A DNA stretch of 40,672 bases from Methanobacteriota archaeon (GTDB taxonomy: Archaea; Thermoplasmatota; Thermoplasmata; RBG-16-68-12). The translations under genes were made by a program, and so were the position numbers. Each line of letters opens with the position of its first letter. The stretch's first letter is position 1. The stretch is from positions 1 through 40,672 of the forward strand of contig VBMN01000074.1 in the NCBI GenBank assembly GCA_005878385.1, read 5' to 3'. The notes under the pieces were generated by a model. It saw only the letters and a list, made by a program, of their open reading frames with translations, ran no database searches and was not told the origin of the DNA. This document shows, piece by piece, positions 4,970-23,325 of this stretch.

Positions 4970-5434
4970 TTAGGCTTTCCCGGTCGGGACGGCGTTCTGG
5001 GGCGGACGCGACGCGCGCTCGCGCAAGGCACGGTTCATCTCCTCGAATCCCCGGCGCACATCCTGTTCCAGCCGTCGTGCGAGGAACGGCAGAAAAATTC
5101 CGCGGAACCGTTCCCGCTGCACGAACCGCGTGGAGCCCGCGTTCAGCGGCGTGAGTTCGAAGATGTGTTCCCCGTCGAAGAGACCTCGGATGCCTAAGTG
5201 GCCCAACCAGCGGAACTCTTGGTTCGGGACGACGACCTTCACCGTCGGACGGAATCGCATCGGGCGGGTACCGGACGCGCCGAGCTCCACCTCGAGGCGG
5301 GATCCGACGTCCGGCTTTCCCTGAACCGACCGAATGAACGGGTTCCACTCAGGGTAGGCAGCGAAGTCCATCAAGACGTGCCAGACGCGTTCGACCGGCG
5401 CGTCGATATCCGTCTCGGTTTGGAGTTCCAACAT
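4970..5434 (-). CDS. SRPBCC (START-like) domain protein
   Basis: IDAPVERVWHVLMDFAAYPEWNP ... GFEEMNRALRER pattern. Confidence 0.88.
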   Translation of the reverse strand: MLELQTETDIDAPVERVWHVLMDFAAYPEWNPFIRSVQGKPDVGSRLEVELGASGTRPMRFRPTVKVVVPNQEFRWLGHLGIRGLFDGEHIFELTPLNAGSTRFVQRERFRGIFLPFLARRLEQDVRRGFEEMNRALRERASRPPQNAVPTGKA

Positions 5435-8235: not shown

Positions 8236-9525
8236 ACGACTTCTCTGCTCTTCCGCGGCGGCCTGATTGTCACGCAAGACTCCGAGCGCCGCGTGGTCTC
8301 TGGCGATGTCCTCGTCGAGGAGGGACGCATCGTTTCGGTGGGTTCCTCGGACCTCTCGGCCGATGAAGTGATCGACTGCACGGGTTGCGCGATCGTGCCC
8401 GGACTCATCAACCTCCACAACCACGTCCCGAACACCCTGCTCCGCGGCGTGGCCGACGATGTCCCGCTGGAAGAGATGTTGCCGAAGGCCGCCGTCATCG
8501 ATGCGAAGCTGACACGGCGCGACGTGCAGGTAGGCGCGTTGCTCGGTTGCGTCGAGATGATCCGGTCCGGGACGACGAGCTTCCACGACCTGTTCTATTG
8601 GGAGGACGAGGTCGCGCGGGCCGTCCGGGAATCCGGGATCCGCGGATTCCTGTCGTGGGTCACCCTGGACGAATCTCGGACGACCCAGCATGGCAGTCCC
8701 CTGAAAAATGCGGACGCGTTCGTCGCGAAGCAGAAGGGAGACCCCCTCGTGACACCGTCCATAGGCGTGCAAGGCGTCTACGCGGCGTCCGAAGAGACAT
8801 GCACGAAGGCGAGGGAGATCGCGGACCGCCACCAGGTCCGACTCCACATGCATCTCTCCGAAACCCGCGGGGAGGTGGAGCACCATCGGAAGGAGACCGG
8901 TCATCGACCGATCGCGTGGCTCGAGAAGATCGGCTTCCTAGGTCCGGGTCTCACCGCGGCCCACTGCGTCTGGGTCACGATCAACGAGGTGCGGACGCTC
9001 GCACGCCATGGTGTGAGCGTGGCCCACTGTCCGGTCTCGAACATGAAACTCGCGAGCGGTGGCGTCGCGCCGGTGCCGGAGATGTTGCGAGAGGGAGTCG
9101 TGGTGGGCCTCGGGACCGACTCCCCGATTTCGAACAACGCGATGGACGTGTTCGCGGATATGAAGATCGCCTCTCTCTTACACAAGGCCACTCGCTGGGA
9201 TGCGCGCGCGATGCCCGCGCAAGCGGTCCTCGATCTCGCGACGATCGGAGCCGCACGGGCGTTGCACGTGGACTCGGAGCTCGGCTCGATTGAGGTCGGG
9301 AAGCGCGCGGACCTCGCAGTCGTCTCCCTGCAGGGTGCCCACACGACTCCTTTTTATCCGGAAACACTCATCAGCCAACTCGTCTACAGTTGCCGGGGGA
9401 GCGATGTGCGGGCGACGATTGTTGATGGCCAGATTCTCATGGCGGACCGGGTCGTGCAGACCGTCGACGAGGCCGAGGTGGTCTCCCGGGCTCAGGAGAC
9501 CGCGCGTGAGCTCTTCGAGGCGTGA
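8236..9525 (+). CDS. Amidohydrolase, MTA/SAH deaminase-like
   Basis: PGLINLHNH, EMIRSGTT, HMHLSET, AAHCV, HCPVSNMKLASG, GLGTD, GSIEVGKRADL; homologous N-terminus begins at ACG 8236, first in-frame GTG after it is at 8293. Confidence 0.88.
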   Translation, partial: TTSLLFRGGLIVTQDSERRVVSGDVLVEEGRIVSVGSSDLSADEVIDCTGCAIVPGLINLHNHVPNTLLRGVADDVPLEEMLPKAAVIDAKLTRRDVQVGALLGCVEMIRSGTTSFHDLFYWEDEVARAVRESGIRGFLSWVTLDESRTTQHGSPLKNADAFVAKQKGDPLVTPSIGVQGVYAASEETCTKAREIADRHQVRLHMHLSETRGEVEHHRKETGHRPIAWLEKIGFLGPGLTAAHCVWVTINEVRTLARHGVSVAHCPVSNMKLASGGVAPVPEMLREGVVVGLGTDSPISNNAMDVFADMKIASLLHKATRWDARAMPAQAVLDLATIGAARALHVDSELGSIEVGKRADLAVVSLQGAHTTPFYPETLISQLVYSCRGSDVRATIVDGQILMADRVVQTVDEAEVVSRAQETARELFEA

Positions 9526-9528
9526 GCC

Positions 9529-10185
9529 GTGATCGTCGGTGTGGACGAAGCCGGGCGAGGGCCAGTCATCGGCCCGCTCGTGGTCGCCGGAGTGGCCGTC
9601 GAATCGGATGTCCCCCTTCGTCACCTGAACGTCCGCGATTCGAAGAAACTCTCGCCGGAGCGCCGGGAGGCCCTGGCCCCGGAGATCGAGAAAGTGTCGA
9701 CGTACGAGCTCGTCGTGATCCCCGCGGAACGGATCGACGTGATGCGGTCGGAGATGTCGCTCAACGATTTCGAGGCGAAGCTGTTTGCCGAGGTGATCGA
9801 CAAGTTGCGCCCGGAGACCGCGTACGTGGACGCCGCGGACGTCGACGAGATCGAGTTCAAACGTTGCGTCCGCAAAGAGCTCGCGTTCGACGTGGAGATC
9901 GTGTCCCAGCACAATGCCGACGAACTGTTCCCCGTCGTCAGCGCCGCCTCGATCCTCGCCAAGGTGTGTCGAGACCGCGAGATGCGGTTGATCGAGGACG
10001 AGATCGGGCTGCACATCGGATCCGGCTACGCCTCGGACACGGACACGATCGCGTTCTTGGAAACGTGGATTCGCCAGCATGGATCGCTGCCGCCGCACAC
10101 GCGGGCCTCGTGGGACACCGCGCGGCGCCTGCTCGCGGGATCCCGGAACCACAAGCTCGACGAGTTCGGTGGGGGAATCCCATGA
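9529..10185 (+). CDS. rnhB: Ribonuclease HII
   Basis: GVDEAGRGPVIGPLVV, DSKKLS, YVDA, VSAASILAKV, GSGY. Confidence 0.97.
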   Translation: MIVGVDEAGRGPVIGPLVVAGVAVESDVPLRHLNVRDSKKLSPERREALAPEIEKVSTYELVVIPAERIDVMRSEMSLNDFEAKLFAEVIDKLRPETAYVDAADVDEIEFKRCVRKELAFDVEIVSQHNADELFPVVSAASILAKVCRDREMRLIEDEIGLHIGSGYASDTDTIAFLETWIRQHGSLPPHTRASWDTARRLLAGSRNHKLDEFGGGIP

Positions 10186-10511
10186 GGGAGATGCTCGAGG
10201 ACCTAATCACGAAATTCAACGCGAAGGTAGGGACCGATCCGGCCTTGCGAGCCGAGATCGGCGACCTGACGAAGACCGTCCTGATCGAATTGAAGGACGG
10301 GACGAAGTTTCATTTCATCCTGAAGGACCAGCACGTCGCCGCGCTCCTTGATGGCGCCGTGGACCGCGCGGACATCACGATCTCGACCGATGCCGAGACG
10401 TTGGGGGCCCTCATCCGACGCGAGGTCGGACCGTTCAAGGCGTACGCGACGGGAAAACTCCGACTCAAGGGAAGTCTCGAGGACCTCGCGCGCTTCCGGA
10501 AGTTCTTTTGA
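10182..10511 (+). CDS. SCP2 sterol/lipid-binding domain protein
   Basis: ADITISTD...PFKAYATGKLRLKGSLEDL SCP2 signature; ATGA overlap with the rnhB stop. Confidence 0.85.
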   Translation: MREMLEDLITKFNAKVGTDPALRAEIGDLTKTVLIELKDGTKFHFILKDQHVAALLDGAVDRADITISTDAETLGALIRREVGPFKAYATGKLRLKGSLEDLARFRKFF

Positions 10512-10595
10512 CGCCGCGCGCGATAGGTTTATCCTGCACGGTCCAATGCGGACGGACGACCGCCGTCGCGGGCCTGCGGCTCGATGTGGGCAGGT

Positions 10596-10732
10596 AGCGG
10601 GGTGGGGTAGCCAGGATATCCCGTCGGGCTCATACCCCGGGACTCCCAGGTCCCCGGTGAGACACCCGGAGATCGATGGTTCAAAAGGGCCGGCAGGACC
10701 CGCCTCCGGTTCGGAATGTCCATCCCCCGCTA
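10596..10732 (+). tRNA. Initiator tRNA-Met(CAT) with two introns: 10635-10663 (position 37/38) and 10686-10718 (position 59/60)
   Basis: Spliced: AGCGGGG TGGGGTAGCCAGGATATCCCG TCGGG CT CAT A|A CCCGG AGATC GATGG TTCAAA|T CCATC CCCCGCT A; A1-U72 and three G-C pairs in the anticodon stem mark the initiator; both junctions fold as BHB; no encoded CCA. Confidence 0.93.
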
Positions 10733-10922
10733 TCGACCGCGGACCTCGTGCGGCGGTCCCCCTTCGAGGCCGTGCCCCTGATTTCGTTCCGTGAAAATAC
10801 GTCAACCTTGCGTAAGGTTAATCGAAGTCGGTCCTTCGGTCTCCGATGGGTCGGACTCTGATTCTCAGGTCGCAACTTTTATCGTCGATGGGCCGGGTGG
10901 TCCGACGCTCGGCAGGCTTTCA

Positions 10923-12005
10923 ATGGATCGAGTGAAAACTGGCATCGTCGGCTTGGACACGATGCTGAACGGCGGATTCCTGCCCGCGCGACCGTATGTG
11001 ATTTCCGGCCCGACCGGAAGCGGAAAGACCGTGCTCATCGCCCATTTCCTCCTCGAAGGCCTCCGGCTCCAGGAACCTTGCCTCCTCGTGACCCTCGACG
11101 AACCCCCGATCGAGGTGAAGTCGAACATGGCCACCTTCGGGTGGAATATGGACCGCCTGAAGATCCTCGATGCGACCCCGGACGTGCGGGCGCACAAGCG
11201 CCAGCGGTCCGTGATTGACGTCGGGACCTCCCTCGATGTGCGCGACATGGAAGACGTCACGGACATCCGACAGTCCTCTCAGGTGCGGGCCCTCGAGGTC
11301 ACCGTCCACAGCGTCCAGAAGATGATCAAGCAAGAGTTCTCGCAGCACCTGGAACGCACGAAGCAGCGATACAAACGGATCGCGGTCGACTCGATGACCG
11401 CCCTCAAGATGTTCTCGATGGAGGGCCAGGACAGTCGCATCTTGATTCAGTCGTTCCTCCGGTTCCTCGCGGAACTCGAGGCGACGACCCTCATCGTCTC
11501 CGAACGCCTGGACCGCAAGAAGCTCGAAACCGAGTTCTTCCTCGGGCGGGGGGAGATCCGGATGCACAAGTGGATCGACGGGAACATGATCCGCCACGCG
11601 ATCTCGATTGACAAGTTCCGCGGCTCCGCCTTTGACGACAAGATGCATCCCGTGACAATCGGCGACAAAGGGATGGTCGTCGCCCTCGACGCCCCCTCCC
11701 AGATTCGCGGGACCTCTCCCGAAGGGAAGCCGGGCGAGTCCTTGCTGGAAACGCGCCTGATCGACGAAGTGTCCAACGTGATCGAGTCCGTGATGCGCCA
11801 GATTGAGGAGGCGCACCGACGCCAGATCCCGATTCGAGATGTCGAGGTCGCTCTGTCGCGCGCGATGCTCGCGTTCCAGCGGCGCAACTACCAGAAGGCG
11901 ATGAAGATCGCCCTCGCCTGCGATTCCCAACTGAGGGAACGGATCGCGGAAGCCCCGCCTCCGCCGCCTGTGGCCATGCCGCCGCGACCGCCGGTGATCC
12001 GATGA
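10923..12005 (+). CDS. KaiC-like RecA-superfamily ATPase (single domain) with C-terminal helical extension and Pro-rich tail
   Basis: TGIVGLDTMLNGG, GPTGSGKT, TLDEP, IAVDSMT, DKFRGS; ATG 10923. Confidence 0.9.
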   Translation: MDRVKTGIVGLDTMLNGGFLPARPYVISGPTGSGKTVLIAHFLLEGLRLQEPCLLVTLDEPPIEVKSNMATFGWNMDRLKILDATPDVRAHKRQRSVIDVGTSLDVRDMEDVTDIRQSSQVRALEVTVHSVQKMIKQEFSQHLERTKQRYKRIAVDSMTALKMFSMEGQDSRILIQSFLRFLAELEATTLIVSERLDRKKLETEFFLGRGEIRMHKWIDGNMIRHAISIDKFRGSAFDDKMHPVTIGDKGMVVALDAPSQIRGTSPEGKPGESLLETRLIDEVSNVIESVMRQIEEAHRRQIPIRDVEVALSRAMLAFQRRNYQKAMKIALACDSQLRERIAEAPPPPPVAMPPRPPVIR

Positions 12006-14462: not shown

Positions 14463-15188
14463 ATGCAGCCGGGCCAGATGGCATACGACCGCGCGATTAC
14501 GGTCTTCAGCCCCGACGGCCGCCTGTTTCAGGTCGAATATGCCCGCGTCGCCGTGACCCGGGGAAACACGACGGTCGGCCTGAAATTCAAGAGCGGCATC
14601 GTGCTGATGGCCGACAAGAAGCTCGGTTCCCGGCTCGTGGAGACCTCTTCGATCGAGAAGATTTTCCAGATTGACGACCATGTGGGAGCGGCAACCTCCG
14701 GCCTGGTCGCGGATGCCCGGGTCCTGGTGGACTACGCCCGGCTCGTCGCGCAGATCAACAAGGTCACGTACAGCGAGCGAATCGGCGTGGACCTGCTCGT
14801 GAAACGGATCTGCGACTACAAGCAGAACTACACGCAGTACGGCGGCGTGCGGCCGTTCGGGACCGCGCTCCTGGTCGCCGGCGTTGACGACCTCGGGACC
14901 CACCTCTTCGAGACCGACCCCAGCGGAGCCCTCGTCTCGTACAAGGCGGGGAGCATCGGCCAAGGCCGGCAGGCGGTCATGGAACTCCTTGAGGAGAAGT
15001 ACAAGGAAGGGATGAGCCAGGACGATGCGATGGTCCTCGGGCTCGAGGCCTTGCAGAAGGCCTCCGAAGGCGAGAAACTGGACGCGCGGGCGATCGAGGT
15101 CGGACTCGTGACGGAAGTGGACAAGTTCCGGCGCCTGTCGGAGTCGGAAGTGGGCCAGTACCTCACCCGGGTCCCGACGGCGTCCTAG
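14463..15188 (+). CDS. psmA: Proteasome alpha subunit
   Basis: [20 protein letters not shown] signature, [17 protein letters not shown]. Confidence 0.98.
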
Positions 15189-23209: not shown

Positions 23210-23325
23210 GCCGAGGTCGCCTAGTCCGGTAGGGCGCCAGCCTGGAGAGCTGGTGGGCGTAAGCCCTCGGGAGTTCAAATGGCTCCCGCTCTGGTGACGG
23301 CTGCCTGGAAGTCTCCCCCTCGGCG
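23210..23325 (+). tRNA. tRNA-Ser(GGA) with a non-canonical intron 23280-23311 (position 59/60)
   Basis: GCCGAGG/CCTCGGC acceptor, CCAGC-CT GGA GA-GCTGG anticodon arm, long variable arm GGGC-GTAA-GCCC, GGGAG TTCAAA|T CTCCC T arm, G73; BHB at junction; TTTATA at 23175-80. Confidence 0.93.

Follow-up and report, generated by a model that had tools for sequence, protein, structure and literature searches.

Archaeal EndA, the tRNA splicing endonuclease, recognises the BHB motif independently of the tRNA body. In their available text, reviews tie non-canonical and multiple tRNA introns to loop-bearing endonucleases and assign single canonical introns only to Euryarchaeota with α4 or α′2 enzymes (PMC4090602, PMC5829648, PMC4033280). 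The accessible sections of Kaneta et al. 2018 (PMC5829648) state that relaxed introns are removed only by loop-bearing (αβ)2 and ε2 enzymes and that the 'Cluster II' Euryarchaeota encode α′2 exclusively, and published assays, as given in the excerpts available, indicate that α′2 enzymes need a strict motif (PMC3239211, PMC5829648, PMC4033280). A full-text search, which left many subscription papers uncovered, found no paper on non-canonical tRNA introns in Thermoplasmata.

Several described systems share features with the gene reported here. In ARMAN-2 (Ca. Micrarchaeum acidiphilum), pre-tRNA-Cys(GCA) and pre-tRNA-Pro(GGG) carry, as here, an intron at T-loop position 59/60; Pro(GGG) also shares the strict hBHBh′ motif and the presence of two introns in one tRNA, and in vitro work demonstrated that the Cys 59/60 intron is excised (PMC3239211, available text). 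The same source, Fujishima et al. 2011, calls such sites major insertion sites. ARMAN-2 differs in its three-unit ε2 enzyme, which has its own specific loop, in the tRNAs concerned, which are Cys and Pro rather than the initiator, and in belonging to DPANN rather than Thermoplasmata (PMC3239211). Methanopyrus kandleri, from the accessible account of its pre-tRNA-Glu(UUC) (Kaneta et al. 2018, PMC5829648), is a euryarchaeon that combines a multi-intron tRNA with a loop-less EndA, as in the present case; its fused enzyme (PDB 5x89) is the best solved-structure match of the EndA described below, and its D-loop HBh′ intron, which accompanies a canonical one, has counterparts in this genome and order, where D-loop introns likewise lack an outer helix. 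By contrast, M. kandleri has separate α and β genes instead of one natural ORF, and its non-canonical intron lies in the D-loop rather than at 59/60 (PMC5829648).

Korarchaeum cryptofilum is called, in the available text of Fujishima and Kanai 2014 (PMC4033280), the only archaeon with an α2 endonuclease and non-canonical introns. Like the present lineage, it pairs a two-unit fused endonuclease with non-canonical and multiple tRNA introns, but its enzyme carries a crenarchaeal-type specific loop (PMC4033280), an insert that is absent from the EndA here when aligned to A. pernix α. The initiator tRNA-Met gene of Thermofilum pendens, according to the available summary by Yoshihisa 2014 citing Chan et al. 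2011 (PMC4090602), is likewise broken in the T-arm and repaired by BHB processing; unlike ours, it is circularly permuted, with new termini in the T-arm, and not colinear, and its host is crenarchaeal with an (αβ)2 enzyme. Finally, in the Asgard groups Atabeyarchaeia and Freyarchaeia, 92–95% of tRNA genes are reported to contain introns, which are often non-canonical and multiple (Valentin-Alvarado et al. 2024, PMC11291895, available text).

The gene analysed here lies in a 40,672-nt stretch of DNA (the window) that forms contig C93 of assembly G000, which comprises 1.87 Mb in 179 contigs and is 77% complete; assignment of the genome to Thermoplasmata is supported, and DNA matching the stretch occurs in soil metagenomes. 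The original prediction, that an initiator tRNA-Met is interrupted by BHB introns at both 37/38 and 59/60, is borne out by the cloverleaf and by conservation. Sequence inspection gave the same borders for its three exons and two introns (Table 1). Exon 1 ends in the anticodon loop bases CUCAUA, exon 2 starts with ACCCGG and has the T-loop bases UUCAAA at its end, and exon 3 has the sequence UCCAUCCCCCGCUA, with CCA not encoded. When both introns were removed by script, ARAGORN called a 75-nt tRNA-Met(CAT) with a perfect cloverleaf, its acceptor, anticodon and T stems having 7, 5 and 5 bp. Removal of intron 2 only yielded the same tRNA-Met, now with a canonical intron of 29 nt; ARAGORN called no tRNA when intron 1 alone, or no intron, was removed. 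The spliced tRNA has A1:U72 atop the acceptor stem and three G:C pairs (29–31/39–41) adjoining the anticodon loop, all invariant in the 28 aligned sequences described below, and we take these features to be hallmarks of archaeal initiator tRNAs. The locus is a real, conserved initiator tRNA-Met gene whose anticodon loop and T-loop are each interrupted by a short intron.

Table 1. Coordinates of the gene, its splicing motifs, neighbouring features and related elements elsewhere in the genome (window positions unless another contig or record is named)
Feature	Location	Strand	Description
SCP2-domain protein	9522-10511		flanking gene
TATA/BRE-like box	10519-10534	+	CGCGATAGGTTTATCC; upstream of tRNA; conserved
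Initiator tRNA-Met gene	10596-10732	+	three exons, two introns
Exon 1	10596-10634	+	tRNA positions 1-37: acceptor 5′ strand, D-arm, anticodon stem 5′ strand, CAU anticodon, A37
Intron 1	10635-10663	+	29 nt, canonical position 37/38, hBHBh′ motif
Exon 2	10664-10685	+	tRNA positions 38-59: anticodon stem 3′ strand, variable loop, T-stem 5′ strand, T-loop UUCAAA
Intron 2	10686-10718	+	33 nt, T-loop position 59/60, hBHBh′ motif, A-G mismatch in central helix
Exon 3	10719-10732	+	tRNA positions 60-73: U60, T-stem 3′ strand, acceptor 3′ strand, discriminator A73
BHB 1 central helix	10629-10632 with 10658-10661		CTCA with TGAG, 4/4 pairs
BHB 1 bulges	10633-10635, 10662-10664		3 nt each
BHB 1 inner helix	10636-10643 with 10650-10657		C-C mismatch at third pair
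BHB 2 central helix	10680-10683 with 10713-10716		TTCA with GGAA, 3 pairs and one A-G mismatch
BHB 2 bulges	10684-10686, 10717-10719		3 nt each
BHB 2 inner helix	10687-10693 with 10706-10712		GGGCCGG with CCGGTTC
RNA-library contig X15	10592-10736		depth 29; spans whole intron-containing gene
RNA-library contig X18	10590-10744		spans whole intron-containing gene
RNA-library contig X17	10550-10690		stops inside intron 2
KaiC-family ATPase	10923-12005		flanking gene
tRNA-Ser(GGA)	23210-23296		only tRNA found in window by ARAGORN and Rfam
Intron of second CAT tRNA	C80, 21005-21034	+	30-nt intron at 59/60, same TTCA/GGAA central helix
tRNA-Pro(GGG)	C77, about 5224-5334		38-nt D-loop insertion
tRNA-Gln(CTG)	C71, 14875-15000		perfect canonical 25-nt intron (14941-14965) and 28-nt D-loop insertion
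tRNA-Tyr	C7		canonical intron (ARAGORN)
Elongator-like tRNA-Met	C19		canonical intron (ARAGORN)
tRNA-Lys(CTT)	C129		canonical intron (ARAGORN)
EndA	C114; L002 934-2004	-	one 356-aa ORF

Both introns have the 3-4-3 BHB geometry, with outer helix h and inner helix h′ present. The outer helix is the anticodon stem in BHB 1 and the T-stem (GATGG/CCATC) in BHB 2. Intron 2 had initially been described as a relaxed BHB, a label that fits less well: it keeps the full hBHBh′ geometry and is better called a strict-geometry motif at a non-canonical position, 'relaxed' in the literature denoting a missing bulge or helix. The non-canonical feature of intron 2 is its position, not its shape. In thermodynamic terms, the two BHB folds cost 2.1 and 2.9 kcal/mol relative to the local minimum-energy folds. 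The two central helices are absent from the whole-precursor and the local minimum-energy folds alike, and z-scores are only −1.5 to −1.9. The local fold does predict h and h′ of intron 2; ViennaRNA alone does not predict the BHB 2 central helix. We reject these minimum-energy folds as evidence against the motifs, which are enzyme-recognised and only 2–3 kcal/mol above the minimum.

The suspicion that standard scans may miss the gene proved correct for both programs used. ARAGORN reports no tRNA at the locus, and Rfam reports nothing there at the gathering threshold; at E ≤ 10 Rfam again shows no tRNA at the site, its sole match being a sub-threshold hit to a Pyrobaculum sRNA (snoRNA-family) on the opposite strand. 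In intron mode, ARAGORN called a tRNA-Glu(TTC) at 9093–10648 with a 1,464-nt 'intron', a false call that borrows part of the initiator gene; across the whole genome this mode gave many false long-intron calls and was left unused. We ran our own SPLITS-like BHB scan over the whole assembly, splicing each candidate and passing the product to ARAGORN with canonical-intron search. The filter (outer helix 3/3; inner helix 3/3, or 2/2 for introns below 17 nt; central helix at least 3/4) retained 215,519 candidates of about 3.7 × 10^8 position-by-length combinations in the assembly, or about 6 × 10^-4. The blind scan retrieved the locus with exact borders, as a 33-nt T-loop intron plus a 29-nt intron at 37/38, and it was the sole CAT tRNA to join a spliced BHB candidate and a canonical intron at a plausible tRNA length. 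The other CAT row, on C19, represents the elongator tRNA-Met, parsed in an alternative way to give 83 nt. Inspection also set aside intact tRNAs with a spurious splice near an end, 87–99-nt 'tRNAs' on C13, C15, C31, C134, C135 and C148, and a 'Thr' on C80. As to whether the gene is more than a chance arrangement, conservation settles the matter.

Among 24 other genomes sampled from the genus, 22 contain the full 137-nt two-intron gene at 86–97% identity; in the 23rd the gene is cut by a contig end, and the remaining genome, 67% complete, gave no match to the gene. The two-intron gene was aligned in 28 distinct sequences, drawn from this genus and the sister genus. Exons 2 and 3 are invariant in all 28, and exon 1 varies at two D-loop positions, in both cases in sister-genus rows only; the seven acceptor pairs, the anticodon stem and the T-stem show no variation. 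The introns vary, with compensatory changes in intron 2. The named structure is paired in 91.8% of pair cells, compared with 34–59% when the 3′ partners are slid by one to three columns, and in five pairs both partners have changed, the intron 2 inner helix accounting for four. By element, pairing is complete (100%) in the outer helices formed by the anticodon stem and T-stem, 96% in the central helix and 87% in the inner helix of intron 1, and 80% in the inner helix of intron 2. Exceptions are concentrated at few positions: the third pair of the intron 1 inner helix is unpaired in 27 of 28 sequences, and the intron 2 central helix has four of four pairs in 10 sequences and a non-standard pair in the other 18. 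The gene is under selection. Across the genus, intron 1 shows far stronger conservation than intron 2, and intron 2 has an invariant apical AGG...CCT hairpin (alignment positions 100–102 and 108–110).

G000 itself, at 77% completeness, contains no uninterrupted initiator anticodon arm, the sole occurrence of GGGCTCATA...ACCC within 60 nt being this locus. Across 79 species genomes of the order, G000 included, 60 have a 12–42-nt insertion at 59/60 of the initiator tRNA and nine have an uninterrupted T-arm; none has both forms, and 10 match neither pattern. By family, the insertion is found in 40/43 genomes of f1, to which the window belongs, 6/8 of f3, 1/1 of f5 and 12/14 of f7, and in 0/6, 0/2 and 0/4 of f2, f4 and f6. 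No f1 genome (0/43) has an uninterrupted T-arm, and several of these are 94–98% complete. The combination of introns varies: f3 and f5 have the 59/60 intron only, f4 has the 37/38 intron only and f6 has no intron. In f7, all four genomes examined (G035, G039, G030 and G048; loci L153–L156) carry a 38–43-nt D-loop insertion, with a four-of-four central helix and an inner helix and no outer helix, together with a 39–41-nt 59/60 intron with full BHB, and their initiator tRNA is without a 37/38 intron. As for the genes that flank the tRNA here, for an SCP2-domain protein and a KaiC-family ATPase (Table 1), an ORF with a similar N-terminus (MDRV...) lies 3′ of the initiator tRNA in f4 and f6.

In a sample of 401 genomes from the class, the intron pattern occurs in 51, of which 50 belong to the window's order; the 51st, G382, is an artefact in which an uninterrupted gene is followed by a chance CCGCTA. 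A true 59/60 initiator intron is thus confined, in this sample, to the window's order. The uninterrupted pattern occurs in 164 genomes, a count that takes in the unpublished genomes G167, G339 and G264, and 155 of these are among the 337 genomes outside the order; about 180 outside-order genomes match neither pattern and are uninformative. The view that the intron repertoire is unexpected for the lineage, put forward in the original prediction, therefore stands in part: the 59/60 initiator intron is peculiar to this order in the class sample, but inside the order it is routine (60/79). Nor is the gene an oddity of one genome, and at genome level such introns are already routine in this lineage, a circumstance that the original prediction had itself named as counting against it.

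Upstream of the gene lies a TATA/BRE-like box (Table 1). From 22 genus loci taken for comparison, one of which has no upstream sequence because of a contig end, a TTTAT or TTTAA box was recovered in 21 of 21 with upstream sequence, with a GATAGGTTTA core in nearly all, 34–68 nt upstream of the mature 5′ end. We infer that this box is a TATA/BRE promoter. We also compared four metatranscriptome runs over positions 10300–11100. Contigs from three RNA libraries, belonging to three studies, cover the gene in its unspliced form only (X15, X17 and X18; Table 1); they are contigs of relatives and as such show neither expression level nor true transcription. No spliced joints are reported in the contigs of the four runs; contigs cannot show absence and mature tRNAs are poorly captured, so that this counts only weakly against splicing.

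Unspliced contigs, a 77% complete assembly and the silence of standard finders are what one would also see if this were a dead tRNA gene, broken by two insertions, with the real initiator tRNA in the unassembled 23% of the genome. We consider this very improbable. The exons of a dead gene would not be expected to stay essentially invariant across 28 sequences while its introns diverge and covary, nor its insertions to fall in exact BHB register such that their removal restores a perfect cloverleaf; the box upstream is conserved, and the uninterrupted T-arm that this explanation calls for is missing from all 43 family genomes, several of which are 94–98% complete. A second copy could lie in the missing part of the assembly, and none is present in relatives. 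A functional gene is the reading that we pursue below.

The genome encodes a single recognisable EndA, whose one ORF contains two PF02778 (tRNA_int_endo_N) and two PF01974 (tRNA_int_endo) stretches. Five relatives, 94–98% complete, show the same arrangement, the only catalytic-domain matches in each being a pair in one frame. One EndA gene was thus found in each of the six genomes, as one two-unit ORF and not as separate α and β genes or a three-unit protein. From sequence and alignments, the catalytic triad of Tyr, His and Lys is complete in the C-terminal unit only; in the N-terminal unit the His is replaced by Ser. The best solved-structure match is the fused α-β enzyme of M. kandleri (5x89; E = 1.6e-34, residues 9–345), followed by A. 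fulgidus α′2 (1.9e-24) and then M. jannaschii α4; Thermoplasma acidophilum α′2 aligns over residues 272–355 only. Broad-specificity enzymes, either (αβ)2 with the CSL/L1 loop or ε2 with the ASL/L2 loop, bear in the catalytic unit a loop insert that includes a conserved Lys. The crenarchaeal specific loop is absent here: the 6- and 4-residue inserts of the A. pernix α subunit (3p1z_B) are missing in the catalytic unit, and the same stretch aligns gap-free to the M. jannaschii α4 enzyme. EndA is, as predicted from its sequence, a two-unit, α′2-like enzyme without the loop linked to broad specificity. Classification of EndA, proposed alongside the original prediction, thus yields the kind that reviews describe as restricted to canonical introns, and an enzyme that is two-unit and loop-less fits the idea of an unexpected intron repertoire. 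The catalytic-domain profile is matched over its full length by the N-terminal, non-catalytic unit (74 bits, positions 1–85); a deletion in this part is described for the structural units of Thermoplasmatales, Halobacteriales and Archaeoglobales in the available text of Kaneta et al. 2018 (PMC5829648). An RtcB is also encoded in the genome (570 bits).

Other tRNA genes of the same genome are interrupted as well (Table 1). ARAGORN finds canonical introns in three, and the genome-wide search for non-canonical introns with our scan brought up, besides the locus itself, a 59/60 intron in a second CAT tRNA on C80. This tRNA has G1:C72 and the acceptor strand GGGCCCG, scores only 30.2 bits with Rfam, and may be tRNA-Ile2. 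The likeness between its intron and intron 2 is confined to bases forced by the shared T-loop and BHB, and we make no case for transposition. The D-loop insertions of tRNA-Pro(GGG) and tRNA-Gln(CTG), at their best inferred borders, have central helices of four of four pairs, inner helices of four of four and a weak outer helix; that of tRNA-Pro(GGG) looks like an HBh′ intron.

These D-loop introns without an outer helix, in the same genome and order, bear on whether EndA acts alone. The initiator gene could be functional and yet its T-loop intron be cut inefficiently by a two-unit loop-less EndA, an extra factor or an altered EndA recognition surface being needed. Reviews and assays, in their available text, tie non-canonical introns to loop-bearing enzymes (PMC3239211, PMC5829648, PMC4033280), the A. 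pernix loop insert is lacking here, and the outer-helix-less shape is described as cut poorly by the AFU α′2 and M. kandleri enzymes (PMC5829648, accessible text); moreover, this EndA is nearer to the fused M. kandleri enzyme than to the α′2 enzymes of A. fulgidus or T. acidophilum. Against this, intron 2 keeps both bulges, a four-position central helix and both flanking helices, which is the shape that strict enzymes accept, and each of the six genomes has one EndA gene only. On balance we judge the need for such a factor or surface improbable: each motif retains the complete hBHBh′ geometry, for which an enzyme of strict specificity should be enough.

Splicing by EndA and RtcB is the account that we favour. 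Positions 10596–10732 are very probably the working, and apparently the only, initiator tRNA-Met gene, spliced by a single two-unit EndA together with RtcB; as judged from the sequence, cleavage and ligation by these two enzymes would almost certainly be the route. In the proposed pathway, the gene's own TATA-like promoter would give a precursor of at least 137 nt, in which each intron–exon junction pair would fold into a 3-4-3 BHB, with the anticodon stem as outer helix for intron 1 and the T-stem for intron 2. The single α′2-like EndA would then cut both 3-nt bulges of each motif, RtcB ligase would join the three exons, and CCA would be added last.

A scan of public genomes (185,579 species genomes) matched at least 120 loci. 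Of the 120 listed, 91 satisfy a fixed-register BHB test at 59/60, and for most of the remaining 29 the inner helix is the sole point of failure. Seven of the matches listed are likely artefacts (L033, L046, L094, L103, L121, L129 and L136). The 80 titled rows among the matches listed include Promethearchaeota, Thorarchaeota, Hermodarchaeota, Bathyarchaeia, Micrarchaeota, Aenigmatarchaeota, Altiarchaeota, Nitrosopumilales, Desulfurococcales, Sulfolobales, Hadesarchaea and Methanosarcinales, and the broader groups represented there are Asgard, Bathyarchaeia, DPANN, Thaumarchaeota, Crenarchaeota and Methanosarcinales. A regex identified exon 1 in 62 of the matches listed, and in 29 of these at least 10 nt are inserted at 37/38 as well; 14 of the 29 come from the window's clade and the remainder mostly from Asgard or Bathyarchaeia.

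The Asgard records among the matches listed, from Promethearchaeota, Thorarchaeota and Hermodarchaeota, resemble the present gene in having the 59/60 initiator insertion, often with one at 37/38 too. A Ca. Atabeyarchaeum record was also matched in the scan, and its insertion fails the fixed-register BHB test. The Asgard lineages differ in carrying the L1 loop (Kaneta et al. 2018, PMC5829648, available text). Three records of uncultured Methanosarcinales archaea (L039, L064 and L109) have an initiator tRNA with a 59/60 insertion; L039 and L064 pass the BHB test, and L109 has full outer and central helices and fails in the inner helix. Methanosarcinales are another lineage to which reviews, in their available text, assign α′2 enzymes. 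Two-intron initiator genes occur commonly both in this order and in several further groups of archaea, and the gene is a modest textbook exception, not a new kind: its BHB introns sit at a known hot spot, and its added interest, itself modest, comes from the loop-less two-unit EndA of the order.

For genome annotation, the consequence is that genomes of the order may be scored as lacking an initiator tRNA, since ARAGORN and the Rfam tRNA model miss the gene. For the evolution of splicing, an order with non-canonical introns in an essential single-copy tRNA and a loop-less EndA runs against the published rule of co-evolution. The introns in view are those at 59/60 in the initiator and the second CAU tRNA, and those in the D-loop without an outer helix in tRNA-Pro(GGG), tRNA-Gln(CTG) and the initiator of one family. 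We regard it as possible rather than probable that the whole order of Thermoplasmata keeps non-canonical introns with only a two-unit EndA that lacks every known specificity loop; if the D-loop HBh′ introns are spliced, the enzyme would be broad by a route that does not involve a loop. Should those introns truly be of HBh′ type and spliced, they would break the rule that limits such genes to loop-bearing (αβ)2 and ε2 enzymes plus Korarchaeum. The pairing of non-canonical introns with a loop-less two-unit enzyme suggests that, given a complete BHB shape, the type of enzyme sets no limit on where an intron can lie, and the order offers a natural substrate–enzyme pair for testing this relation between position and enzyme.
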